Of a stretch of DNA of 61,899 nt, positions 19,306 through 52,459 are shown piece after piece. The notes beneath the pieces are model-generated. The model searched no databases. It saw only the letters and a list, made by a program, of their open reading frames with translations, and was not told the DNA's origin. The first letter of the stretch is position 1. Each line of letters starts with the position of its first letter. This stretch comes from Candidatus Parcubacteria bacterium. Its GTDB lineage: Bacteria; Patescibacteriota; Minisyncoccia; Phycocordibacterales; JBAYGS01. The stretch spans positions 1 through 61,899 of the forward strand of contig JBDKKW010000003.1 in the NCBI GenBank assembly GCA_039795895.1. Reading direction: 5' to 3'. The position numbers and the translations under genes are program-made.

Positions 19306-19392
19306 GGAAAGGTGCCGGAGCGGTCTAACGGGCAGTCCTGGAAAGACTGTGTATCAGAAATGGTACCGCGAGTTCGAATCTCGCCCTTTCCG
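19306..19392 (+). tRNA. tRNA-Ser (anticodon GGA)
   Basis: Acceptor GGAAAGG/CCTTTCC, anticodon arm CAGTC-CTGGAAA-GACTG, long variable arm, T-arm GCGAG-TTCGAAT-CTCGC, discriminator G. Confidence 0.9.
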
Positions 19393-19425
19393 CAAAATAA
19401 ATATTACCTAGGGTGATTTTATTTT

Positions 19426-19633
19426 GCGGTAGGAAAAACTGCTGGAGAGCAGTTGTGCGCGAGATTCGAAGCCTGATTGAGTATTTTCTTAAGCTCTTTT
19501 TAAGAGCACAAAGAAAATCCAATCAGGGTACTGAAACTGTAAGTTTCGAAACTCTCGCTCCTTCCGCCTTGCACAAGAGAAAGCGTGTAAGGAGTAATTT
19601 CCTTCAAGGGTTCAAATCCCTTACCTTCCGCCA
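19426..19633 (+). ncRNA. Candidate structured RNA ending in a tRNA-like T-arm, acceptor 3' strand and encoded CCA (identity unknown)
   Basis: 3' end AAGGG-TTCAAAT-CCCTT ACCTTCC G CCA (19606-19633). 5' GCGGTAGG (19426-19433) is complementary to CCTTCCGC (19624-19631) with one mismatch. There are several internal hairpins (e.g. AACTGCT-GGAG-AGCAGTT at 19437-19454). Confidence 0.4.
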
Positions 19634-34147: not shown

Positions 34148-34151
34148 GATT

Positions 34152-34505
34152 TCTGGGTAACGATAAGCCGAATTCTGTACCCAGCACTATTACAGTGCTG
34201 GGCGATAGTCATTTGTCTGGGCCATATGTTGCCACATAGCTCTGGCGACTCTCCGCATATTCTTGCGAATATTTGGCACGGTCTTGCACGTAGGTAAGGA
34301 TTTGGCCGTTGCAACCCCGATATTACTATCGGGACTCACCCCGTGAAGGGTGCCTCAATCTTTTCAGATTGAAGCGTCTCTGTTCGCACCTCTAGGATTG
34401 CTCCTGACGGGCGTTACCCGCTACCATCCTCCGCACTTTGTGTGCGGACGTGTTCGGACTTTCCTCCCGGATTCCCGAAGAAACCCGAGTAACTATCTAT
34501 TACCC
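34152..34505 (-). ncRNA. rnpB: RNase P RNA (bacterial type)
   Basis: The minus strand reads GGGAGGAAAGTCCGAAC (CR-I, 34455-34471 region) and ACAGAATTCGGCTTATCG (CR-V, ~34162-34179). P1 candidate is GGGTAAT / GTTACCC. The ends are approximate. Confidence 0.85.
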
Positions 34506-34511
34506 TCAATT

Positions 34512-43558: not shown

Positions 43559-43669
43559 TTATCGCCAGAGAAATGGTACGTAAAGTAGTATCATGCTGAT
43601 GATGATAAACACGCAGACGATACTCCAGGCGACAGTCACGGTTTTCTTATGTTTTTTGTTGAGAAGCAT
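43559..43669 (-). CDS. Possible 36-aa single-TM micro-protein (MLLNKKHKKTVTVAWSIVCVFIIISMILLYVPFLWR)
   Basis: A short ORF fills an otherwise empty gap. It encodes a basic N-terminus plus one TM helix. No clear SD sequence. Confidence 0.3.
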   Translation of the reverse strand: MLLNKKHKKTVTVAWSIVCVFIIISMILLYVPFLWR

Positions 43670-43740
43670 GGGGGATAGTATAGCTGAAAATGCCTCTTTT
43701 TGCCAATGCGATATCCGGTGTCATTTGGTATACTGATTAG

Positions 43741-44118
43741 ATGCGAGAGTTTGAACAACGAAAAAAAGTCAGGCGATTTCTATACTCACCTTTATCTCTG
43801 ATTATATTGGTGCTGGTGCTTTTGGTACTCGTCAAAGCGTCGTGGGGCGCGTACCAGAAATATCGCTTGAGTGATGGGGCATATCAAGAGGTCTCGCGTG
43901 AGCAAGTGGAGTTGTCTCTCCGCAAAGATCAGCTCGAGAGTGATATTGCTCGTCTCAAGACCACCGAAGGTGTTGAGGCTGATATTCGTACCAAATTTGG
44001 CATGGTAAAGCAGGGCGAGGGGATGCTGATATTGGTAGAGCGTGGTACGACTACCGAGCAAGGAGCTACCACAAAAGCTAGTGTCTTCGACGCCCTGAGA
44101 AGTCTTTTTAAACGCTAA
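43741..44118 (+). CDS. Septum formation initiator (FtsB/DivIC-like)
   Basis: N-terminal TM, then a coiled coil, then ..DIRTKFGMVKQGEGMLILVE, typical of the DivIC/FtsB family. Confidence 0.65.
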   Translation: MREFEQRKKVRRFLYSPLSLIILVLVLLVLVKASWGAYQKYRLSDGAYQEVSREQVELSLRKDQLESDIARLKTTEGVEADIRTKFGMVKQGEGMLILVERGTTTEQGATTKASVFDALRSLFKR

Positions 44119-44143
44119 AACGCGTGTTAGGATAGGGGCACTT

Positions 44144-44214
44144 GCGAGTGTAGTATAGTGGTAGTACTGGTGCTTCCCAAGCATCGGGCGCGGGTCCGAT
44201 TCCCGCCACTCGCA
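44144..44214 (+). tRNA. tRNA-Gly (anticodon CCC), T-loop TCCGATT
   Basis: Acceptor GCGAGTG/CACTCGC, D-arm GTAT-AGTGGTA-GTAC, anticodon arm GGTGC-TTCCCAA-GCATC, T-arm GCGGG-TCCGATT-CCCGC, discriminator A. Confidence 0.8.
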
Positions 44215-44371
44215 CCGAAGTATTGAGCAGAGCGAAATCACTTTGGGGAGTGAGGAAGCAAACTGCTTTGCTTCCGGCGGGAAGCGGAAGGCTTTTCTAT
44301 ATTTCGTCCGCGAAATGAGAAAAGCACCTGACTATGTAGTAGTCGATTCCCGCCACTCGCACCGAAGTATT
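44197..44371 (+). repeat. 28-nt perfect direct repeat of the tRNA-Gly 3' end flanking a 119-nt structured insert
   Basis: CGATTCCCGCCACTCGCACCGAAGTATT occurs at 44197-44224 and again at 44344-44371. Confidence 0.9.
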
Positions 44372-44400
44372 AAGTTATTTATATTAGTATATCTTTATTT

Positions 44401-45537
44401 ATGAAAATCCTTATTGTTGGAGCCGGGATCGGAGGTTTAACCCTTGCAGCGTTTCTTAAAGAATCTTCTATCGAGTACGATATTGTCGAAAAAGCAAATA
44501 ATTGGAACACGCAGGGATTCTCGATTGGATTGTGGAATAATGGTAGACATATTTTAGCAAAACTCGGTATTCTTGATCGATTGGAAAAAGAGGGCACGCA
44601 CATCAAGCGCTACCAAGTCCGTAACGGCAAGGGGGATCTCATTCGTGAGTATGATTTTTTTAAATTGTATGCCAAATACGGCCTGAGCTATACCCAGATC
44701 AACCGAGCTTTCCTGCACAGTTGGTTACTTGAACTTGTCGGTAAGGAAAATATTCAGCTTGGAGTGCAGGTTAATTCCCTGAAAGATGTTGGGCACGGGG
44801 TTGAGGTTGTTTTAAGTAATGGTCAGACGCATACTTATGATCTTGTGGTCGGCGCAGATGGTATCCACTCGAAGATCCGCGGTATGATTTTTGGTAGTGA
44901 ACTTGAGAAATTCGACAACTGGCGAGTTTGGTATGCTTGGGTTGATAATCAATTTAAAGATGAGGCTACTGTCACTGAATATGTCGAGCCGGGCGAATTC
45001 ATTGGTATTTTTGATTCTTGTGGTAAAACACTTGCCGTTCTCATTGCCCCTGTCGAACACACTGTTTGGGATGATGTAAAAGGACGACTTGGACGTTTGA
45101 GTGAGACATTTAAGCATGAGGTTAGACTGGATGGTTTTTTGAAGGGTTTGAAAGATGAGGATGTTATGCCCACAGATCTTAGTCGTGTTACACTCAAAAA
45201 ATTTGTGAAGGGTAGAGTAGTGCTCGCTGGAGATGCTGCACATGGTTTTGAGCCGAATGCTGGTCTCGGCGCCTCAATGGCTATGGAGGATGGTTACGTG
45301 CTTGCTGCTGAACTCATGAAAGTCTCAGGTACCTATACGATCAAAAAGGCTATTGATCGCTATCAGGATCTTAGAAGGAAGCGGGTGAAGGTGGCTCGTT
45401 CATCGACCAGTAGAATGCGGTCGTGGTCTTTCATTGGTCCAAGATGGCTCAGGAAGACTGTGGACTTTTTCCTTCCTTTTGTTCCACAGCCTCTTTTTAC
45501 TAGCCAGTATCTGAAGTTGATGAAGGAGGAGATTTAG
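44401..45537 (+). CDS. FAD-dependent monooxygenase (UbiH/aromatic-ring hydroxylase family)
   Basis: MKILIVGAGIGGL dinucleotide-binding motif and GDAAHGFEPNAGLGASMAMEDG. Confidence 0.8.
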   Translation: MKILIVGAGIGGLTLAAFLKESSIEYDIVEKANNWNTQGFSIGLWNNGRHILAKLGILDRLEKEGTHIKRYQVRNGKGDLIREYDFFKLYAKYGLSYTQINRAFLHSWLLELVGKENIQLGVQVNSLKDVGHGVEVVLSNGQTHTYDLVVGADGIHSKIRGMIFGSELEKFDNWRVWYAWVDNQFKDEATVTEYVEPGEFIGIFDSCGKTLAVLIAPVEHTVWDDVKGRLGRLSETFKHEVRLDGFLKGLKDEDVMPTDLSRVTLKKFVKGRVVLAGDAAHGFEPNAGLGASMAMEDGYVLAAELMKVSGTYTIKKAIDRYQDLRRKRVKVARSSTSRMRSWSFIGPRWLRKTVDFFLPFVPQPLFTSQYLKLMKEEI

Positions 45538-45619
45538 TTGAACAACAAGCATTGCGTTGTTTCAAATCTAAAAAGTTTGATACAATAAACCAACTTTATT
45601 AGTTATTATTTACATGTAT

Positions 45620-45856
45620 ATGAAGACTGTTGCGATTTATTCAACCCCGACCTGTCATTACTGCAATATGGCAAAGGATTTTTTTAAGAAGAATAATATC
45701 GCCTACACTGAATACAATGTGGCGACTGATTTGGCGAAGCGAAAAGAAATGGTAGAGAAGAGTGGTCAGATGGGGGTGCCGGTGATTGAGATTGATGGCA
45801 AGCTTTCTGTGGGGTTTGATGAAGCGGAGATTAAGGGTGCTCTCGGAGTTAAATAG
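45620..45856 (+). CDS. Glutaredoxin-like protein (NrdH/YruB type)
   Basis: VAIYSTPTCHYCNMAKDFF, GVPVIEIDG. Confidence 0.8.
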   Translation: MKTVAIYSTPTCHYCNMAKDFFKKNNIAYTEYNVATDLAKRKEMVEKSGQMGVPVIEIDGKLSVGFDEAEIKGALGVK

Positions 45857-45890
45857 ATAGTGGTAGTGAGACAGTAGAAATTCGAAAATA

Positions 45891-45939
45891 AAAAAAGCCC
45901 CGTCCTGCTTCGCCAAGGCTTCGCAGGACGGGGCTTTTT
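45891..45939 (+). terminator. Rho-independent terminator
   Basis: AGCCCCGTCCTGC (45895-45907) pairs with GCAGGACGGGGCT (45922-45934), followed by TTTTT. It is preceded by a TAG-rich patch at 45854-45881. Confidence 0.85.
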
Positions 45940-45981
45940 CATTCACCAAAATCAGTGCTATAGTCTCAGGTGTAGCCAATT

Positions 45982-46053
45982 GCCCTCGTAGTTCAACAGA
46001 TAGAACCGGCCCGTCCTAAGGGTCTAATGTCAGTGCAACTCTGGCCGAGGGCA
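45982..46053 (+). tRNA. Atypical tRNA-Arg (anticodon CCT) or tRNA-like gene
   Basis: Perfect acceptor GCCCTCG/CGAGGGC, D-arm GTTC-AACAGATA-GAAC (no GG), anticodon arm GGCCC-GTCCTAA-GGGTC, T-arm GTCAG-TGCAACT-CTGGC (no T-Psi-C consensus). Confidence 0.5.
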
Positions 46054-46177
46054 CAAATTTAGAAAGTAAATTTGGATGGACAGAATCGGAATTATATTCT
46101 ATGCTGTTAGCGGAATTCGATTTTGAACCATGGTGGTTCAAGTAAGTACATTTTTAAACTTAAACTGGAGGTATCCA

Positions 46178-46516
46178 ATGAAATGCAAACAAGCTGTAAT
46201 TTGGTCGCTTATTCACGGTAAAAAACATGGGTCACTAAACGAAAAGGATGTAACGATTGGGGCTACGATACCTTTGGTCTCCGCACTCTTTCCGGGTATC
46301 AATTATTACTCCATCCCTGGGTTTAATCAGGTGATGCGGGACTGTGTCCTTCCGATTCTTGTGAAGCGCTTTGCTCACTTACAGACCATTCATGCGTCCA
46401 AGATTGATCCACGCGCAACGATAGAAGTTGTTGAGGCTTTGCCTTCCAAGGGGTATGAGTGGCAGGATAGTCGCAGATGGATGGCTAAGTTTAGGAAGAT
46501 TTTGGTGTCCGCCTAA
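46178..46516 (+). CDS. Hypothetical protein (112 aa)
   Basis: ORF only. GGAGG lies 5 nt upstream of ATG 46178. Confidence 0.45.
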   Translation: MKCKQAVIWSLIHGKKHGSLNEKDVTIGATIPLVSALFPGINYYSIPGFNQVMRDCVLPILVKRFAHLQTIHASKIDPRATIEVVEALPSKGYEWQDSRRWMAKFRKILVSA

Positions 46517-46539
46517 GAAGTCAATATGGCTTCAGGTGT

Positions 46540-46579
46540 AGAGCTCCAATCGCAAGTGTTTGCGATTGGAGCTCTTTTA
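46540..46579 (+). terminator. Rho-independent terminator
   Basis: AGAGCTCCAATCGCAA-GTGT-TTGCGATTGGAGCTCT followed by TTT. Confidence 0.8.
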
Positions 46580-46690
46580 AATTCTTAATTATCTCTTACT
46601 TTAATGAGGAGATTCATCTTTATTATCTCAGTTACTAGTGCGAGATTACGGCTTATTGTCTATCGTCTTTCGTTATGCTATATTTCTCCC

Positions 46691-46978
46691 ATGACTCCAG
46701 AGGAACGATCTTTGTTGGAACGAACACTGTCTCTTGCGCAAGAGAATAACAAGATGCTACGGAAGATACGCAATAGTGCGCGAATCTCTTCGATATTGCG
46801 TCTCTTTTACTGGATTATTGTTCTGGGGTTGTCGTTTGGGTCATATTACTTGATTCAGCCGTACATTGAGCAACTTGGAAAAGCGTACGGAGTTTTGAAT
46901 GACGGAGTAAATACCGTCAAAAGTGCTCAGAGTCAGTTTGGAGATATTCCAAATCTCTTGAAATCCATCAAGAAATAA
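46691..46978 (+). CDS. Hypothetical membrane protein (95 aa)
   Basis: MTPEERSLLERTLSLAQENNKMLRKIRN followed by one TM (ILRLFYWIIVLGLSFGSYYLI). Confidence 0.5.
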   Translation: MTPEERSLLERTLSLAQENNKMLRKIRNSARISSILRLFYWIIVLGLSFGSYYLIQPYIEQLGKAYGVLNDGVNTVKSAQSQFGDIPNLLKSIKK

Positions 46979-47002
46979 TTTCGAGGTTTATAGTCAGTGA
47001 TT

Positions 47003-47075
47003 GCTGGGATAGCTCAGTTGGTAGAGCATTCCCCTGAAGAGGGAAGGGTCCCCAGTTCGAACCTGGGTCCCAGCA
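47003..47075 (+). tRNA. tRNA-Phe (anticodon GAA)
   Basis: Acceptor GCTGGGA/TCCCAGC, D-arm GCTC-AGTTGGTA-GAGC, anticodon arm TTCCC-CTGAAGA-GGGAA, T-arm CCCAG-TTCGAAC-CTGGG, discriminator A. Confidence 0.92.
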
Positions 47076-47359
47076 CAAAATACAAAATCCGCCGATGAGG
47101 CGGATTTTGTATTTTGTGCTGGGAAGCGAGCAAACTACTTTGCTCGCGACCCAGGTTCGAAAAGCGGAGCGATGTTTCGCTAGCAAGCGAAACCGCGAGC
47201 TGGGGTCGAGAAAAACAGGAGCGACGGCGACTGTTTATTCGTGACCGATCCGGTCGTACTCGACCACCTGGGTCCCAGCTTCGTTTCGAGGTACCGAGGA
47301 GCGAGTGAGATCTTGGGTCCCAGCACAAAATAACACCGCCTTGGCGGTGTTATTTTGTG
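47064..47359 (+). repeat. Triplicated tRNA-Phe 3' end with structured inserts and two related hairpins
   Basis: TGGGTCCCAGCACAAAATA occurs at 47064-47082 and 47314-47332. ACCTGGGTCCCAGC occurs at 47061-47074 and 47266-47279. There is a 26-bp perfect palindrome (47068-47093 / 47099-47124) and a second hairpin at 47324-47359. Confidence 0.9.
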
Positions 47360-47360
47360 A

Positions 47361-47810
47361 TTAATTCCCCGGCTTAATCTTGAGCTTCGTCTGTCTCCCC
47401 TTATTTATCTTCGGTAATCGGATAGTGAGCAGACCATTTTTCTCAGTCGCTTCAGCTTCGTCTGGTTCAACTTCTTGGGGGAGTAGGATGGTGCGTGAAA
47501 AAGAGCCCCAGTATAACTCACGGAAAAAATAATCTTCATCAGCGACGGTGTGTACATTTTCTCGCTTGCATTTGATGGTCACCATATCTCGAGTAATGAC
47601 CACATCCAAATCTTCTTGGCGGACGCCAGCGACCATTGCTCGGATAATCACCTCAGATGGGGTCTGGTGTACATCGACCGAAAGCTCGCCTTCATTGTCA
47701 CCTTCTTCAAATTTTGCAACGCCCTTAATAGGGGTAGTCTCTTCGGTATCATCTTCCATTGGCACTCCGCCAGTGAGTCTTTCAAAAAATGAGCGTTTAT
47801 GTTTAGACAT
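47361..47810 (-). CDS. Hsp20/alpha-crystallin small heat-shock protein
   Basis: Alpha-crystallin domain: LSVDVHQTPSEVIIRAMVAGV..FSRTILLPQEVEPDEAEATEKNGLLTIRLPK. Confidence 0.9.
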   Translation of the reverse strand: MSKHKRSFFERLTGGVPMEDDTEETTPIKGVAKFEEGDNEGELSVDVHQTPSEVIIRAMVAGVRQEDLDVVITRDMVTIKCKRENVHTVADEDYFFRELYWGSFSRTILLPQEVEPDEAEATEKNGLLTIRLPKINKGRQTKLKIKPGN

Positions 47811-47822
47811 AATGTAAATGAG

Positions 47823-48533
47823 TTATTGGGTAAGTGGTTTGGTGAGTGTTGGTTTGGCTATTCTTTTGATTCGACTAAATACAATCAGCAAGAGAATAAT
47901 AGCAATCCACACTCCGTAGAACACCCTAAATACTTCAGTACCTTTCGCATCCATTATAAAAAAATTAAAGGTTGCGTGCAAACCGGTCGAGAGGATAAGT
48001 CCAATAACCGTTGCTACTTCTCGCTTATAGCGGCCCTTGTAAAATTCCGTGGCAATGACCGCACCGACTACTCCCGAGGTGAGCACATGGAGGAGGCTGG
48101 CACCGATAAAGCGGAGGTTACCGGTGACGAGGCTCTCGATAGGTGTGTAGTGGAGCATTGATCCAGCAATAAAGAGGGTGTTTTCGAGCGCAGAAAAGCC
48201 GAGTGCTGCGGTGATGAGGTAGATCATGGCATCAACTGGCTCATCAAAATATTTCCGGTCGAGAGCGGGAAGGTAGGCCGCAAGGTATTTCAGTACTTCT
48301 TCGATACCCGCCCATGCGACGACGATCCAAAAGCTCGCACCGATCATTGAGCCGATTTGCTTTTGTAAGTAACCAGCGAGAGGGACGACCACCATACCGC
48401 AGAGGAAGACTGAGAGGAGGACTGCTCGAGGTTCTGGATGTCGATCTTCGTGAAGCCAGCACCAGAGCCAAAAGAGGGCTGGGAGAATGCCTCCGAGGGC
48501 GGCGTAGAGGAGTATGTCAGGAGCGGTTTCCAT
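47823..48533 (-). CDS. PrsW-family intramembrane protease
   Basis: Polytopic; GIEEVLKY, GFSALENTLF, LHVLTSG motifs. ATG 48533 (METAPDILLYAALGG). Confidence 0.75.
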   Translation of the reverse strand: METAPDILLYAALGGILPALFWLWCWLHEDRHPEPRAVLLSVFLCGMVVVPLAGYLQKQIGSMIGASFWIVVAWAGIEEVLKYLAAYLPALDRKYFDEPVDAMIYLITAALGFSALENTLFIAGSMLHYTPIESLVTGNLRFIGASLLHVLTSGVVGAVIATEFYKGRYKREVATVIGLILSTGLHATFNFFIMDAKGTEVFRVFYGVWIAIILLLIVFSRIKRIAKPTLTKPLTQ

Positions 48534-48585
48534 AGGGGAAGTATATAGTAAAAAGTACAAAGTATGAAGTATATAATACGGGGAA

Positions 48586-48620
48586 AAGCCCCAGAAATTG
48601 TGGGGCAATTTCTGGGGCTT
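48586..48620. terminator. Hairpin terminator downstream of valS; its arms are shared with 12531..12569
   Basis: AAGCCCCAGAAATTG-TGGGG-CAATTTCTGGGGCTT. Confidence 0.7.
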
Positions 48621-48661
48621 TCTTTGTATTCCTCTAACAACTCTACACCAATGACTATCAA

Positions 48662-50845
48662 CTATGCTTCAGGCCACTTCTCGATCATCAGTAGTTTCTT
48701 GTTTGCGATTGGTAGGTGTTCCCAAATCGTCTCAGTCACAAACGGCATAAATGGATGGAGGAGTTTGATACAGGTGGTGAGGATGTAGAAGAGGGTGAGT
48801 TGGCGTGAGGTTTTGATAATGGCGTCGGTGCCTGCAATCTTTGCTTTTGAATCTTCAATGATAATGTCAGCAAACGTGTGCCAAACATAGTGATAGATTT
48901 TTTCAGCAGACATATAGAAGCGGTAGTCTTCGAGATCTTTGGTGATGTCGGCAACGAGGGTGTGGAGCTCAGTGATTAGTTTGGTGTCCTCGGGAGTTAA
49001 GCCATTGTGGTCCGGAGCATTTGTCGACAAGATTTGAATACCCTCACATGAAGTGAGTACAAAACGGGTGATGTTCCAAAGTTTATTTCCAAAATTCTTG
49101 TATCCCTTTATTTTATTTTCTGAAAGTGATAGGTCGGTGCCGGGAGTGTTGCCCACGACAAGGCCAATACGGAGCGCGTCAGTGCCGTATTTGACGATAA
49201 GGTCGGTAGGGTTGATCACATTACCCTTACTCTTACTCATCTTTTTGCCCGATGCATCATTTACCAAGCCGTGGAGATATACCGTGTGGAATGGAGCCTT
49301 GCCAGTGAGATAGAGGCCAAAGATCACCATACGCGGAATCCATTTAAAGATAAGGTCCGAGCCGGTCTCCATCACGTCGGTTGGGTAGAATTGCTTCCAA
49401 TCACTACCTTCGGAATATCCGAGGGAGAGGAGTGGCCACTGTCCAGATGAGAACCAGGTATCAAAAGTGTCGGTATCGGCACGGAGTGTTGCCTTGCACT
49501 TTGGACAAGTGGTGAGTTCGTTTTCTAGATCAGGCTCGGCAAAACTACACGAGTCACAAATTTTGGCTGGAATCGGAATGCCCCAGACGATTTGTCGAGA
49601 AATATTCCAGTCGAGGGTATTTTTCATCCAGTAGAGGAAGATCTTGCGGTAATTATCTGGCTCAAAGATGACTTGTTTTGCATCAACAGCTTTGATCGCT
49701 TTCTCTGCAAGGGGGGCCATTTTTACAAACCACTGCGGAAGAATCTGTGGCTCGATAACGGTCTCGCATTTGTAGCAGACGGGGACATTATGCACGTATT
49801 TCTCATCGACTTTCACGAGTAGGCCTTTGGCTTTGAGCTTCTCGACGATTTTTGGTCTCGCATCGGTGATTTTCATACCGGCAAATTCGCCAGCAATAGG
49901 GAGGAGCTTGCCACGCATATCGATAACTTGCTCGCGGTCGAGTTTGTGTCGCTCCGCAATGCCAAAGTCGATGGCGTCGTGCCATGGGGTGATAGTCATC
50001 ACACCGGTACCAAATTCCATATCAATCGCTTCATCCTTGATGACGGTTGCAGTGATGGGGCCGTTGATCCATTCGAGATCAATCTTTTGTCCTTGTTTGT
50101 ATTCCGCATAGCGCTTATCGTCTGGATGCATCACCACATACTTATCTCCAAATTTTGTCTCAGGGCGGGCGGTACCGATGGTGAATGGACCGTATTTGAA
50201 ATAATAAAATGGATCAGTCTTTTCTTTGCTCTCGGTTTCTACGTCAGAAAGGGAAGTGGCGTGTTTTGAGCACCAATTTACGATACGTGAACCGCGATAG
50301 ACGAGACCGTCATCAAACATCTTCTTAAATGTGCGGTGAGTTTCTGCGATTACTTTCGGGTCGAGAGTGAATTTTTCCCGAGACCAGTCGCATGAAGCGC
50401 CAAGTGCGCGTACCTGTGCTTCCATGTTCGCTTTATTCTCAAGTGTGAAGGCGAGAATTTCTTTGTAGAGGTCCTGAGGATCCATTTTGAATCGAGAACG
50501 ACCTTCTTTCTCAAGCTTTTTTTCGTACACGATTTGTGTCTCAAAACCAGCGTGATCAGCTCCGGGTACCCACAGAGTCTTGAAGCCTCGCATACGTTTG
50601 AAGCGAATCATGATGTCTTCGAGAGTGATGGCGAGAGCGTGGCCGACGTGGAGGTTGCCGTTGGCATTTGGTGGAGGCATTACGATGGTAAACGGTCGCT
50701 GGTGTCTGATAGGAAGTCGGTCGGGATTAAAAAAACCACTGTCGTGCCAGAGCTTGTAGATGCGAGTCTCATGCTCCTCGGCGTTGTATGGCTTGAGGAA
50801 TGCTTGGGGGATATTTGGGTCTTGGTAGGGTTTATTCTCAGTCAT
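48662..50845 (-). CDS. valS: Valyl-tRNA synthetase (short form)
   Basis: PPPNANGNLHVGH (HIGH), GKKMSKSKGN (KMSKS), editing-domain TTRPET-like block GTARPETKFGD. ATG 50845 (MTENKPYQDPN). Confidence 0.95.
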   Translation of the reverse strand: MTENKPYQDPNIPQAFLKPYNAEEHETRIYKLWHDSGFFNPDRLPIRHQRPFTIVMPPPNANGNLHVGHALAITLEDIMIRFKRMRGFKTLWVPGADHAGFETQIVYEKKLEKEGRSRFKMDPQDLYKEILAFTLENKANMEAQVRALGASCDWSREKFTLDPKVIAETHRTFKKMFDDGLVYRGSRIVNWCSKHATSLSDVETESKEKTDPFYYFKYGPFTIGTARPETKFGDKYVVMHPDDKRYAEYKQGQKIDLEWINGPITATVIKDEAIDMEFGTGVMTITPWHDAIDFGIAERHKLDREQVIDMRGKLLPIAGEFAGMKITDARPKIVEKLKAKGLLVKVDEKYVHNVPVCYKCETVIEPQILPQWFVKMAPLAEKAIKAVDAKQVIFEPDNYRKIFLYWMKNTLDWNISRQIVWGIPIPAKICDSCSFAEPDLENELTTCPKCKATLRADTDTFDTWFSSGQWPLLSLGYSEGSDWKQFYPTDVMETGSDLIFKWIPRMVIFGLYLTGKAPFHTVYLHGLVNDASGKKMSKSKGNVINPTDLIVKYGTDALRIGLVVGNTPGTDLSLSENKIKGYKNFGNKLWNITRFVLTSCEGIQILSTNAPDHNGLTPEDTKLITELHTLVADITKDLEDYRFYMSAEKIYHYVWHTFADIIIEDSKAKIAGTDAIIKTSRQLTLFYILTTCIKLLHPFMPFVTETIWEHLPIANKKLLMIEKWPEA

Positions 50846-50887
50846 GTCGACCAATAGTAGCAAAAATAGGGCTATTTTGCCATAGAA

Positions 50888-50925
50888 TACAGACAAGAAG
50901 TGGTTAGTAGTTAGACGGCAGATCA
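50888..50925. repeat. Intergenic patch combining CAGACAAGAAG (27/43-kb family) and TAGTAGTTAGAC (TAG-heptamer family)
   Basis: ATACAGACAAGAAGTGGTTAGTAGTTAGACGGCAGATCAG lies between the tsaD stop and the valS start. Confidence 0.6.
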
Positions 50926-50956
50926 GAAGGAGCAAAAATGATGCTTGGGTTTGAAA

Positions 50957-52189
50957 TTAGAAGCTCAAATTACCTTTTGCGACAAGTAATGGGGTCGCTG
51001 TGTGGTCGGGGGTCTGGGTGAGGTGTTGCATATAGCCCGCACAAGCAATCATCACTGCATTGTCGGTCGAGAGGGCGAGAGATGGGAAGAAGAGTTTGAT
51101 ATGCGGATGTTCGGTCACGAGTGCTTCAAATGCCTTGCGGATGTGGGTGTTGGCGATCACGCCGCCTCCGATAATAAGTGTCTGTGCGCCGTAGTGTTCA
51201 AGTGCTTTTTTTGTTTTAGTGACGAGGACCTCGGTCACCGCATCTTCAAATTCGCGAGCGATGACTTCTTTGTCTTTTTCGGTGAGGGTTTTTAGTTCTT
51301 GTGTAAGGTAGAGCACTGCTGTTTTGAGACCAGAAAAAGAAAAATCAAAATCTTTGGTGTGGAGCATCGGACGTGGGAGAGGATAAGGGGTTGGTTGACC
51401 AGTGTTCGAGAATCTCGATTTTGTTGCTAGTCTTGAAATCTCTGGACCGCCGGGATAGGGTAGGCCGAGCATGCGGGCTACTTTATCAAAAGCTTCACCG
51501 ACAGCATCGTCCCGGGTTTGGCCGATGTTGGTGTATGTGCCCCAGCTTTCGATCAAGATGAGCTCGGTGTGGCCTCCGGAAATAAGGAGGGCGAGAGCGG
51601 GGAAAAGGATTGGGGAGTTGTTAGTTGATAGTTTACGGTCTTTAGTCTGAGGATCAGAAATTAGAAATTTTGACTTAGTAATTTCTCTGTCTACCAAAAC
51701 AGAGACGATATGTCCCTCCATGTGATTGACGGGTATGATGGGAATATTCCAAAGGAGGGAAAGTGCTCGAGCGAAATTGATGCCGACCCAAAGTGCTGGT
51801 TCGAGTCCGGGTCCGACAGTGACCGCGATGGCATCGATGGAGGGTTTTTCTATTTTTGGAAGATACGCCAAGAATTGTTCTTGTAGCTCCGGTTCTTTTG
51901 TTAGAATGGCTTTAATGTCTTCGACCTGTTCATTAGAAATTAGAAATTGGGAATTAGAAATTCCGAAACCCGATTCTTCCAAAGTTTTCTTAAACAAGGG
52001 AATCAGGTTTCGGCTGTGTTCTCGTTTTGCGAGTGCGGGGAAGACACCTCCGTATTGTTCGTGAATTTTAATCTGAGAATTAAGTGCATTTCCGAGCACC
52101 GAAAAAGCGGGTGTATTTTTATCACCGGTCGCGGATACTATGCATACTGCGGTTTCGTCGCAGGAGGTTTCGATGCCGAGGATGAGCAT
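50957..52189 (-). CDS. tsaD: tRNA N6-adenosine threonylcarbamoyltransferase TsaD with two in-frame insertions
   Basis: GIETSCDET, VNHMEGH, ISGGHTEL, GGGVIAN. ATG 52189 (MLILGIETS). It carries extra segments GFGISNSQFLISNEQ.. and EITKSKFLISDPQTKDRKLSTN relative to E. coli TsaD. Confidence 0.9.
   Translation of the reverse strand: MLILGIETSCDETAVCIVSATGDKNTPAFSVLGNALNSQIKIHEQYGGVFPALAKREHSRNLIPLFKKTLEESGFGISNSQFLISNEQVEDIKAILTKEPELQEQFLAYLPKIEKPSIDAIAVTVGPGLEPALWVGINFARALSLLWNIPIIPVNHMEGHIVSVLVDREITKSKFLISDPQTKDRKLSTNNSPILFPALALLISGGHTELILIESWGTYTNIGQTRDDAVGEAFDKVARMLGLPYPGGPEISRLATKSRFSNTGQPTPYPLPRPMLHTKDFDFSFSGLKTAVLYLTQELKTLTEKDKEVIAREFEDAVTEVLVTKTKKALEHYGAQTLIIGGGVIANTHIRKAFEALVTEHPHIKLFFPSLALSTDNAVMIACAGYMQHLTQTPDHTATPLLVAKGNLSF
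51618..51687. repeat. Period-7 array inside tsaD (plus strand TTGTTAG TTGATAG TTTACGG TCTTTAG TCTGAGG ATCAGAA ATTAGAA ATTTTGA CTTAGTA ATTTCTC)
   Basis: Read directly from the sequence. It encodes the second TsaD insertion on the minus strand. Confidence 0.75.
51932..51966. repeat. Five tandem heptamers inside tsaD (ATTAGAA ATTAGAA ATTGGGA ATTAGAA ATTCCGA)
   Basis: Read directly from the sequence. It encodes GISNSQFLISN on the minus strand. Confidence 0.85.
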
Positions 52190-52335
52190 GGGTTTTCGGC
52201 AGAAGAGGATTAGGTCACGAATATTTTGTTCGCCGTCGCTCACAAAATTTCTTGACCTCGACTCGCCGGTTTTTCTTGCTAGAAAAACATGACTCCGTCT
52301 TTCAAATCCTCACAAAAGCTTCGCTTTTTTACCGG

Positions 52336-52408
52336 TGGGCGGTAGAGGATTTGAACCTCTGACATTCACAACGTCAATGTGACGCTCTACCAACTGAGCT
52401 AACCGCCC
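52336..52408 (-). tRNA. tRNA-Val (anticodon GAC)
   Basis: The minus strand reads GGGCGGT TA GCTC AGTTGGTA GAGC G TCACA TTGACGT TGTGA ATGTC AGAGG TTCAAAT CCTCT ACCGCCC A. Confidence 0.9.
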
Positions 52409-52459
52409 GTGCCAGAAGAATAGCAGGTTTTTGTCGCTCGGGGAAGCCCTTTTAGAAAA

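Follow-up and report, generated by a model that had tools for sequence, protein, structure and literature searches.

The repeated tRNA-Phe 3' ends analysed here belong to a conserved, previously undescribed family of modules (type A) of the Patescibacteria, a group of ultra-small and mostly uncultured bacteria. The window, a stretch of 61,899 nucleotides from a Candidatus Parcubacteria bacterium (contig JBDKKW010000003.1), carries three type-A copies, which follow its tRNA-Phe, tRNA-Val and, in divergent form, tRNA-Gly genes. The motif was found at 69 genome loci, nearly all from Patescibacteria, and the covariance model R1 returned 85 matches in 60-odd Patescibacteria MAG loci. Type-A copies lie immediately 3' of tRNA genes of 13 identities and on the tRNA strand without exception; of the 104 tRNAs in the motif-bearing loci, 47, representing 13 amino-acid identities, are followed on the same strand by a core no more than 150 nt away. 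Literature searches, whether by topic or by motif sequence, turned up no account of the family.

Each unit follows the same plan. Guide g1, antisense to the acceptor 3' strand and trailer of the tRNA, is followed by a conserved hairpin (HP), by guide g2, which is antisense to the T-loop and the T-stem 3' strand, by a covarying three-way-junction core and finally by a sense copy of the tRNA 3' end that spans T-loop to discriminator. At the tRNA-Phe locus the following features were identified.

47003–47075, + strand: tRNA-Phe(GAA) gene (ARAGORN; Rfam tRNA, 68.7 bits), with discriminator A at 47075 and CCA not encoded.
47054–47082, + strand: repeat copy 1, comprising T-loop, T-stem 3' strand, acceptor 3' strand, discriminator and a 7-nt trailer (direct-repeat analysis and shuffles).
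47068–47124, + strand: hairpin A, in which the acceptor 3' strand and trailer meet their complement in a perfect 26-bp palindrome (inverted-repeat analysis).
47126–47147, + strand: conserved 9-bp hairpin HP (47126–47134 / 47139–47147), loop CTAC, all nine pairs with double changes across the family.
47148–47161, + strand: guide g2, the 14-nt GACCCAGGTTCGAA, a perfect antisense of the T-loop and T-stem 3' strand (TTCGAACCTGGGTC).
47162–47205, + strand: core junction (covariation; covariance model R1 match 47124–47205, 74.8 bits).
47204–47265, + strand: 3' domain (comparison with the relative L189 and the family).
47266–47279, + strand: copy 2 of the tRNA 3' end, ACCTGGGTCCCAGC, complementary to g2 and g1 (repeat analysis and shuffles).
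47280–47313, + strand: 34-nt spacer with 74% repeat similarity, resembling the start of the 3' domain (TCGAGGTACCGAGGAGCGA versus TCGAGAAAAACAGGAGCGA).
47304–47332, + strand: copy 3 of the tRNA 3' end and trailer, 86% identical over 29 nt, with the 19-mer at 47314–47332 exact.
47324–47359, + strand: terminator-like hairpin of 17 bp, paralogous to hairpin A but shorter (inverted-repeat analysis; not called by a simple terminator scan).

A sequence-only reading of the locus had pointed to the repeats and the palindrome, and both are borne out. The 19-mer TGGGTCCCAGCACAAAATA occurs exactly twice, at 47064–47082 and 47314–47332, and the 14-mer of copy 2 recurs at 47061–47074; neither gave any match in shuffled sequence (100 shuffles for the 19-mer), and the perfect palindrome is likewise absent from shuffled sequence. 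The arms of hairpin A (47068–47093 / 47099–47124) are 26 nt long and 100% complementary, with a loop of 5 nt between them, and the acceptor 3' strand of tRNA-Phe lies within the 5' arm, as had been claimed. The 3' arm ends in GCTGGGA (47118–47124), the complement of TCCCAGC in copy 2, as the same reading had noted; these final 7 nt constitute g1 and have the same sequence as tRNA nucleotides 1–7. That the palindrome might sequester the acceptor strand, as was further suggested, would fit the predicted minimum-energy fold of the whole transcript. The hairpin A design is also present in other subtype-1 members, and both arms are unchanged in the syntenic relative L189. It is missing or not terminator-like in L121, L122, L181, L184 and the Gly and Val elements of the window.

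The core junction consists of AAGC-G-GA-GCG ... CGC-GA-GCT, a tandem G.A internal loop, around the hairpin GTTTCGC/GCGAAAC, followed by GGGG. Set against a canonical kink-turn, in which a 3-nt bulge and tandem sheared G.A pairs lie between a canonical and a non-canonical stem, the core shows a conserved, covarying tandem GA/GA with conserved, covarying stems on either side, and its bulge is a single G. In the 3' domain, GGTC...GACC (47204–47207 / 47243–47246) encloses the hairpin AAACAG/CTGTTT with the loop GAGCGACGGCGA, and a small extra hairpin, GGTCG-TACT-CGACC, at 47252–47265 has the counterpart GGCCG-TCTT-CGGCC in the relative. Of four internal helices that had been proposed within the region, two hold: the 9-bp hairpin, through covariation across the family, and AAACAG/CTGTTT, whose place is taken by different but still complementary helices in the Val element and the syntenic L189. 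The other two, GGTCGAG/CTCGACC and GACCG/CGGTC, give way to the GGTC...GACC pairing that more than 25 family members share instead. Copy 2 may then pair with both g2 and g1 and close the unit as an acceptor/T-type minihelix, with HP at the point where the acceptor-like and T-like helices meet.

Downstream of copy 2, the sequence of the spacer suggests that it is probably the leftover of a second unit. The hairpin at 47324–47359, which had been recognised as related to the one that follows copy 1, is the probable end of the tRNA-Phe transcription unit. The locus is best explained as a full unit followed by a truncated second one, after which come a last copy of the tRNA 3' end and its terminator. 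A simple intrinsic-terminator scan called nothing in 46850–47450, where the T-rich tract of hairpin A lies within a long stem, and in the same interval a simple search for the sigma-70 consensus gave no promoter-like site. An ORF tool reports spurious ORFs over the elements.

Palindromes and repeats break de Bruijn graphs, and unitig depth in the source run is low over 47097–47150, as might be expected if the arrangement were an artefact of assembly or of chance. Such an origin is barely credible. A 5.3-kb unitig of the source run covers 47168–47600 without any difference, and the repeats gave no matches in shuffles. Moreover, independent assemblies of the relatives L152, L189 and L190, from another site and aquifer, share the layout of tRNA, palindrome, element and copy 2, and both palindrome arms are identical in all three. 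The family itself is present in more than 60 genomes. Mis-assembly, against which the sequence-only reading had advised a check, can therefore be set aside, and the comparison across relatives that it had called for shows the same architecture.

Four of the five tRNA genes in the window carry a structured element. In addition to the tRNA-Phe locus these are as follows.

44215–44374, + strand: related element after tRNA-Gly(CCC) (44144–44214), 95% identical to its orthologue (covariance model, 36 bits; repeat analysis).
52196–52333, - strand: type-A element after tRNA-Val(GAC) (52334–52408) (covariance model, 50.5 bits).
19394–19633, + strand: type-B element after tRNA-Ser(GGA), with the same logic and a different core.

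The likeness between the Phe and Gly loci, which had been noted earlier, is real: a 31-nt repeat links 44197–44227 with 44344–44374, the latter being copy 2. In the Gly element HP lies at 44254–44275, g2 is GGCGGGAA (44276–44283), and a single long hairpin is present alongside a divergent core. The Val element adjoins the tsaD start codon (52189–52187), has a variant HP and carries the core stem GAC/GUC in place of AGC/GCU. The type-B element is followed by an extra copy of T-arm and acceptor at 19606–19633.

Across the family, 95.5% of cells are paired and 18 of 19 pairs show double changes, values that none of 500 shuffles equalled. The guides are specific to the neighbouring tRNA, as judged from their longest perfect antisense matches: the median for g2 is 10 nt to its own tRNA versus 5 nt to other tRNAs, and for g1 it is 7.5 versus 5. 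Transition mismatches between guide and tRNA are G.U in ten cases versus A.C in two. G-U pairs occur in the core too, and the structured strand is the tRNA sense strand, which together indicate structure at the RNA level. The possibility that g2 is a copy of the T-stem 5' strand and T-loop was ruled out, as non-palindromic T-loops show the reverse complement (GGAGAATCGAA versus TTCGATTCTCC). Units are 110–250 nt long and have no conserved ORF; a small ORF behind a conserved GGAG-NN-ATG was rejected, its frames and lengths varying between members.

Copy 2 retains 91% identity to the tRNA in its T part and 93% in its acceptor part (26 units), figures which exclude better retention of the T part. 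Where copy 2 and the tRNA differ, the guides follow the real tRNA at 82 positions versus three, a count that is partly a boundary effect, as many of these positions fall outside the repeat, on the left margin of copy 2. In L167 and in the Gly element of L189, copy 2 has decayed and the guides are still complementary to the tRNA; indeed, the L189 Gly g2 is a perfect 13-nt antisense. This suggests that the upstream pairing is at least as important as the downstream one. In subtype 2, comprising 13 of 42 members, g2 pairs with the discriminator and trailer and most members have no copy 2 nearby; a tRNA-like 3' end is therefore not shared by all units. The junction between discriminator and trailer falls within the guide duplex in both subtypes. 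The direct repeats have a fairly fixed left edge in the T-loop (tRNA nucleotides 55–57) and a right edge that varies from 14 to more than 45 nt; their length ranges from 8 to more than 45 nt.

Conservation among relatives was also informative. In a syntenic relative whose coding genes are 72–79% identical to those of the window, identity reaches about 96% in the Phe element and 95% in the Gly core, a compensatory A-U to G-C change included, and the flanking spacers are not conserved. As the elements so far exceed the coding genes, this sequence comparison indicates that the element cores are under purifying selection. Together, the 85 covarying copies, the match of the guides to their own tRNA and the orthologous conservation uphold the earlier proposal of a family of tRNA-templated structured RNAs.

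The competing proposal, that of repeated insertion and excision scars, fares differently. Direct repeats that begin in the T-loop and reach or pass the tRNA 3' end are characteristic of T-loop-class tRNA att sites, and those described here resemble them; the 34 nt at 47280–47313 are also remnant-like. It might be supposed, then, that the repeats are attL/attR-type scars of integrase islands or prophages that repeatedly entered and left the tRNA 3' end. Yet the DNA between the repeats is an RNA-type covarying structure common to 85 copies, it includes tRNA-antisense segments for which att scars have no need, no integrase is nearby, and orthologous sites show conserved elements. Covariation together with this conservation largely refutes the scar reading, which we consider very improbable; it fails for the conserved covarying core and fits only the 34-nt segment.

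The account that we favour, tentatively and at somewhat less than an even chance, is that type A is an RtT-like RNA that shares the transcript of the tRNA, is closed as a tRNA-like minihelix and is excised by tRNA-processing enzymes. The modules would then be non-coding RNAs inside Patescibacteria tRNA transcription units, without a promoter of their own and made by read-through from the tRNA promoter. Guides g1 and g2 would pair with the downstream copy to give an acceptor/T-arm minihelix that closes the core. Because the guides and copy 2 would form this minihelix, we infer that the enzymes of tRNA end processing (RNase Z or exonucleases, RNase P and the CCA-adding enzyme) may cut out the module as a discrete tRNA-like RNA, a pattern also seen in the E. 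coli RtT/RttR RNA. The window itself encodes RNase P RNA, at 34148–34508. The guides could alternatively pair with the tRNA's own 3' third, and for this reason maturation of the tRNA and release of the module would probably be coupled. Recombination and gene conversion between repeated tRNA ends and homologous cores could produce the arrays, module swaps and losses. Several distinct family members occur in wastewater metatranscriptome contigs, which could include DNA; their presence hints that the family is transcribed.

In the minimum-energy folds predicted for the full Phe and Val transcripts, the guides pair with the 3' third of the tRNA itself and the tRNA is disrupted. These folds could also point to a cis-acting conformational switch on tRNA maturation, with g2, with or without g1, as the switching strand. 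Pairing of g2 with the T-loop, T-stem and acceptor of the tRNA would block its folding and processing, pairing of g2 with copy 2 would close the core in the manner of a P1 helix, and a core-bound ligand or protein would choose between them. Such a switch would account for the fact that antisense and sense copies both match the host tRNA. It would also be in keeping with guides that keep their tRNA complementarity where copy 2 has decayed, with the position of the discriminator/trailer junction within the guide duplex, with the tight, conserved three-way junction that the g2:copy-2 helix closes, and with purifying selection on the elements. Against this, a ligand or protein for the core is not known, the alternative partner is missing in most subtype-2 members, tRNAs fold and are processed rapidly, and we know of no comparable switch for tRNA genes. 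The same core stands behind 13 tRNA identities, so any signal would have to be global, which counts against a switch. The Val copy, moreover, is dispensable: it is missing without replacement in the syntenic L152, where about 12 nt of its 5' end are left, so that a given copy can be lost. This absence looks like an internal deletion and not a clean empty site. Overall, a switch seems possible but rather doubtful.

Evidence of rearrangement bears on a further alternative. Tandem arrays stand behind single tRNAs, combining type B with type A in L120, L132 and L168, and two type-A units in L131, L160 and L184. Duplicated units or parts of units were found within the genomes of L156 (255 nt, 89%), L167 (88 nt, 99%) and L176 (113 nt, 95%); orphan units without an intact upstream tRNA occur in L122b, L145 and L156, and a tRNA-Gln is split in L139. 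tRNA-Phe carries different subtypes in different lineages. Taken with the near-fixed left and variable right edges of the repeats, these observations would be expected of a self-propagating, guide-programmed cassette aimed at tRNA gene 3' ends. In such a cassette the guides and the sense copy would read both target strands, integration at the T-loop would leave a direct repeat of variable length, and a recombinase or reverse transcriptase supplied in trans would provide the chemistry.

The searches for partners and carriers of such a cassette gave little. No recombinase, reverse transcriptase or transposase was found in the window (Pfam; 37 window proteins in the case of recombinases), and when the 1,207 ORFs of the 69 loci were clustered all against all, no enriched partner emerged, no protein family being present in more than nine loci. 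The top family, an HTH protein of about 230 aa with no further recognisable domain, was rejected as a partner; it tracks tRNA 5' flanks and not the elements, and it is absent from the window. The hairpin motif by itself was matched at least 117 times in viral contigs, always attributably to chance, and among the matches listed none had AAGCGG downstream. A scan of viral contigs with the core pattern gave five matches, none confirmed by the covariance model and none near a tRNA. Viral contigs therefore yielded no confirmed copy among the matches listed or in the core-pattern scan.

Similarly, no empty-site or junction sequences were found in the reads of the source run. An empty-site search across metagenomes with a tRNA-Phe 26-mer returned only two contigs, both of one relative, and exact matches to the proteins of flanking genes came only from unitigs of the source run. 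The elements lack the hallmarks of MITE and IS elements, namely constant terminal inverted repeats and target-site duplications of fixed length; their inverted segments (g1/g2 versus copy 2) vary with the host tRNA. Copies within one genome are mostly divergent, unlike those of an active repeat family, and retargeting would require a joint change of three segments. The orthologous Phe and Gly elements, about 95% conserved across species, point to selection at the level of the host, which selfish DNA that stays put does not receive. A self-propagating cassette is accordingly judged improbable.

More generally, the modules could be programmable RNA-level devices tied to individual tRNAs, a speculative idea that we hold possible though not probable, in one of two forms. 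As riboswitch-like regulators they could use the T and acceptor arm of the tRNA as their expression platform, with one global signal gating the maturation of many tRNAs. As guide-programmed cassettes they could recognise both strands of a tRNA gene 3' end through the guides and sense copy and be inserted by enzymes supplied in trans. Either form, if true, would be a mechanism undescribed in bacteria that generalises E. coli RtT, and guides that function as their sequences suggest would constitute a natural, retargetable RNA module that addresses a specific tRNA.

Independently of mechanism, a large share of tRNA genes in these streamlined genomes has a selected structured RNA tailored to each tRNA, which points to an unrecognised layer of Patescibacteria tRNA-operon biology. 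There are practical consequences also. The repeated tRNA ends mimic att sites and may mislead callers of genomic islands and prophages, and the palindromes break assemblies.

Among known systems, tRNA integrative elements of the T-loop class, which use tyrosine integrases, resemble type A in their direct repeats of the tRNA 3' end, which start in the T-loop and vary in extent, in leaving the tRNA gene intact and in tandem accretion at one tRNA. Type A differs in having no integrase and no cargo, in its covarying interior with antisense segments and in its orthologous conservation. Integron attC cassettes are likewise promoter-less units stacked behind one promoter-bearing site, with inverse and direct core copies that pair within each unit; in type A, by contrast, there is no RYYYAAC/GTTRRRY core and no intI nearby, and the structured strand is the tRNA sense strand, with G-U pairs.

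In riboswitch and T-box expression platforms, as with g2/g1, one strand has two alternative partners, one of which closes a junction core as P1. The alternative partner in type A would be the T and acceptor arms of a tRNA and not a terminator or Shine-Dalgarno sequence, the element lies 3' and not 5' of the RNA that would be regulated, and there is no known ligand. The tRNA-like domains of tmRNA, viral tRNA-like structures and RNase P external guide sequences serve as signals for processing or stability. They share with type A a coaxial acceptor/T helix built from distant segments, a 3' discriminator and a large insert; type A, in contrast, reproduces the sequence of whichever tRNA lies next to it, and its T-loop is fully base-paired. 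Neither ARAGORN nor the Rfam models for tRNA and tmRNA recognise the element, the only tmRNA-related match being a sub-threshold one of 14.7 bits to permuted tmRNA at the Gly locus.

Rfam searches (the window at gathering thresholds, 43900–47600 at E ≤ 10 and 18 family loci at gathering) returned only tRNAs, matches to miRNA families being generic long hairpins; no group I or group II intron and no self-cleaving ribozyme was matched in these sequences. The RtT family (RF00391) had no match in any of them either, while the E. coli locus, as positive control, gave four matches of 133–138 bits. The parallel with RtT is therefore one of design and not of homology.

It is nevertheless the closest known design. 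The 178-nt RtT (RttR) repeats of the E. coli tyrT-tyrV operon have been known since the 1980s–90s and, to our knowledge, never explained. Like type A, they follow a tRNA gene directly, share its strand and form tandem units. At E. coli tyrT the units finish with 19 nt copied from the tRNA-Tyr 3' end, beginning in the T-loop (AATCCTTCCCCCACCACCA), and the annotated RttR 3' end is the CCA of this copy. Within each unit an internal antisense, GGGGAAGGAT, closes the unit on ATCCTTCCCC around a structured interior; in type A the guides would do likewise. RtT is described as being released from tRNA operon transcripts during processing (PMC3318445, PMC4986893).

The two also differ. RtT carries the small tpr ORF, for which type A has no conserved equivalent. 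The RtT antisense is one continuous stretch of 10 nt, whereas that of type A is bipartite (about 7–18 nt and 10–14 nt) and split by the conserved hairpin, so that a full acceptor-plus-T minihelix is possible. Further traits set type A apart: its palindrome takes in the acceptor strand of the tRNA itself, its core is a three-way junction with tandem G.A, its host tRNAs are of at least 13 identities, it has a second family (type B) beside it, and its spread is Patescibacteria-wide. With type A, the E. coli RtT repeats become one case of a general design that is open to comparative study.

The type-A modules, structured elements lying 3' of tRNA genes, form a family that is real, conserved and undescribed. 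Scanning one genome per species with a pattern gave 69 loci, nearly all in Patescibacteria MAGs. In 36 contexts a same-strand tRNA gene of varied identity ended 23-110 nt upstream, and in many of these 13-20 nt of the tRNA end recurred exactly, 140-380 nt downstream. When 54 cores were aligned, RNAalifold returned a consensus fold comprising a hairpin and a junction with a tandem G.A loop. The covariance model of this core, R1, produced 85 hits in the window and the 69 loci; in their alignment 95.5% of cells are paired and double changes occur in 18 of 19 pairs, values that no shuffle and no slid register approached. Good matches were also seen on contigs labelled Elusimicrobia-like, Patiriisocius (Bacteroidota) and Burkholderiales (L133, L140 and L180), the last having ~65% G+C in the element region, which implies either mis-binning or a range of the family beyond Patescibacteria.

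R1 matches at Phe, Val and Gly, together with an element of a second family (type B) at Ser, place modules behind four of the five tRNAs in the window.

Modules of the window and the tRNA-Phe gene
47003-47075: tRNA-Phe(GAA)
47076-47279: complete Phe unit
Phe element: R1 match, 74.8 bits
52256-52330, minus strand: R1 match (50.5 bits) in a new Val element directly behind tRNA-Val
52196-52333, minus strand: the whole of this type-A element, squeezed in ahead of the tsaD start codon (52189-52187)
Gly element: divergent R1 match, 36 bits
19394-19633, plus strand: type-B element behind tRNA-Ser(GGA)

The Val copy has GAC/GUC in place of the family's AGC/GCU. The tsaD ORF delivered by the ORF tool (50957-52243) begins at a GTG within this element, and that start is probably wrong. 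Behind tRNA-Gly(CCC) a 31-nt tRNA-end repeat occupies 44197-44227 and 44344-44374. Both this Gly insert and the Phe insert contain the hairpin AGCAAACTNCTTTGCT (3 matches versus 0.19 expected) and, on its 3' side, a stretch able to pair with the T-loop and the 3' strand of the T-stem; the likeness of the two loci noted in the sequence-only reading is real. Directly behind the second Gly copy lies an FAD-dependent monooxygenase gene (44401-45537, plus strand), missing from the syntenic locus L189, which is a gene-sized indel adjoining a repeated tRNA end. The RNase P RNA of the window (bacterial class A, 34148-34508, minus strand) scores just 115 bits against a gathering score of 100 and is therefore a divergent version.

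At the Phe locus, the repeats noted in the sequence-only reading were all recovered: the 19-mer at 47064-47082 and 47314-47332 and the 14-mer at 47061-47074 and 47266-47279, both absent from 100 shuffles, and a 26-bp perfect palindrome (hairpin A; arms 47068-47093 and 47099-47124) with the acceptor 3' strand inside its 5' arm. Among the internal helices proposed earlier, comparative data uphold AAACAG/CTGTTT, the inner hairpin, and not GGTCGAG/CTCGACC or GACCG/CGGTC. The same data back a GGTC/GACC pairing in the 3' domain (47204-47207 with 47243-47246) and a small hairpin at 47252-47265. By repeat comparison the 34 nt at 47280-47313 resemble the beginning of a 3' domain and may be read as the stump of a second unit. 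The third tRNA-Phe end and its hairpin (47304-47359) are a shorter paralogue of the first end and hairpin A, and probably form the end of the tRNA-Phe transcription unit. Two mechanical ORFs, 47014-47328 (minus strand, 104 aa) and 47114-47308 (plus strand, 64 aa), lie wholly inside the tRNA and element; almost certainly neither is a gene, and automatic annotation might mis-call them. A 5.3-kb unitig from the source run matches 47168-47600 with zero differences and independent assemblies from another aquifer have the identical layout, so the locus is not an assembly artefact; artefact as a general explanation is largely excluded and scarcely credible.

Subtype-1 units run in the order tRNA, trailer and hairpin, g1, 9-bp hairpin, g2, core, 3' domain and tRNA copy, g1 and g2 being guide segments antisense to the host tRNA. 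The trailer hairpin is often a long palindrome, in which the acceptor 3' strand and trailer are followed by their complement. The core consists of AAGC-G-GA-Gnn, a variable hairpin and nnC-GA-GCU, and the 3' domain of GGUC...GACC or GGGGAGGAAGUUCUUA...UUAGAAACUUGACCCC; the terminal copy begins at T-loop nt 56/57 of the tRNA and extends to the discriminator or further. Non-palindromic T-loops (GGAGAATCGAA versus TTCGATTCTCC) show g2 to be genuinely antisense to the T-loop and the 3' strand of the T-stem. The guides are specific to the neighbouring tRNA: perfect matches between a guide and its own tRNA reach, at their longest, a median 10 nt (g2) or 7.5 nt (g1), compared with 5 nt for other tRNAs. 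Together with the R1 hits and the covarying core, this bears out the earlier suggestion of a family of tRNA-templated structured RNAs. Subtype 2 (13 of 42 units) has a g2 that pairs with the last acceptor bases and trailer, and is usually without a nearby second tRNA end (copy 2). Copy 2 agrees with the tRNA at 91% of T-part positions and 93% of acceptor-part positions. Among transition mismatches between guide and tRNA, 10 are G.U and 2 are A.C, an excess that points to a single-stranded sense strand, i.e. RNA.

Comparison across relatives, advocated in the sequence-only reading, showed that the Phe and Gly elements are conserved in L152 and L189, which are syntenic with 43560-52434 and whose coding genes are 72-79% identical. 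From trailer to 3' domain the Phe element differs from that of the relative just in the 5-nt loop of hairpin A and at one base elsewhere, the inner hairpin being exchanged. In L189 this inner hairpin (47211-47239) has an entirely different stem and retains the loop GAGyGACGrCGA; a module was exchanged here, as opposed to a helix covarying step by step. Loops of the related kind GCGACGGC/GCGGCGGC turn up again in further members and at Val. In the Gly core 5 of 106 nt differ (95% identity), one of the changes being compensatory; the spacer preceding it is ~65% identical, and sequence 5' of the tRNAs shows no conservation. Near-identical cores amid such divergence indicate purifying selection at orthologous sites. 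Since, in addition, no recombinase was found in the window, repeated insertion and excision by an integrase is largely excluded as the origin of the repeats, and very improbable. In the relative the acceptor part of the second Gly copy has decayed. The Gly trailer is duplicated almost perfectly in the window and orthologous trailers differ, which indicates gene conversion between the two copies. Single copies can also be lost: the Val element is absent from L152, where just its first ~12 nt, AAAAGCGAAGCT, remain.

Mixed tandem arrays occur behind single tRNAs, whole or partial units are duplicated intragenomically (L156, L167, L176 and L184) and orphan units exist. In L139 (1740-2650) a tRNA-Gln breaks off after its first 52 nt, where a type-A element and then a decayed 3' part of the tRNA follow; an intact identical tRNA-Gln stands ~200 nt beyond. 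The arrangement resembles a tRNA gene split within its T-arm region. A guide-programmed mobile cassette would account for the arrays and duplications, but is unlikely, as it comes without an enzyme and fits poorly with orthologous conservation. Reverse transcriptase and transposase were likewise not found in the window, no protein family was enriched at the loci, and no family copy was confirmed among the matches listed by pattern scans of viral contigs. A ~230-aa protein whose one recognisable domain is an N-terminal HTH is encoded 10-60 nt 5' of tRNA genes of differing identity (Met, Lys, Arg, Gly) in L120, L131, L134, L145, L146 and L150; this association with tRNA genes is a pattern of its own, and the gene does not occur in the window.

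Type B follows the logic of type A with a different core. The Ser element comprises a palindrome including the acceptor end (19390-19429), the hairpin AACTGCT-GGAG-AGCAGTT, the antisense segment GCGAGATTCGAA, a long hairpin, GGTACTGAAACTGTAAG and a decayed tRNA 3' copy, and is followed by an additional T-arm and acceptor copy at 19606-19633. Related loci hold 8 further members, and GTACTGAAnnnGTAr stands immediately 5' of the tRNA copy in 9 members.

The position, orientation and structure of the modules, their match to the neighbouring tRNA and the selection acting on them are established. As to mechanism, the modules may be transcribed by read-through; g1 and g2 would then pair with copy 2 to form an acceptor/T minihelix, closing the core, and tRNA-processing enzymes would excise the module, as for the RtT RNA of E. 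coli. This account is tentatively favoured. Wastewater metatranscriptome contigs contain several distinct family members, which is consistent with transcription. A switch coupling or gating tRNA maturation is a serious rival, if a rather doubtful one, because in computed folds of the complete Phe and Val transcripts the guides pair with the 3' third of the tRNA itself, and guides follow the tRNA where copy 2 has decayed.

No Rfam family matched the elements, and literature searches found no description of the type-A family. The sequence of the E. coli tyrT operon, in which RF00391 hits mark four RtT units, shows the design of the present modules. Each unit ends in AATCCTTCCCCCACCACCA, the tRNA-Tyr 3' end from the T-loop, in which the type-A copy likewise starts; this copy is the partner on which an internal GGGGAAGGAT closes the unit, and the annotated sRNA RttR has its 3' end exactly at the CCA of the copy. 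In three papers, all citing Bösl and Kersten (1991), RtT is an RNA released from tRNA operon transcripts, for which a link to the stringent response has been proposed (PMC3318445, PMC4986893, PMC2965389). The type-A family shares no homology with RF00391 and has a more elaborate build; in design it is a new and far broader version of the RtT kind of tRNA-operon RNA.
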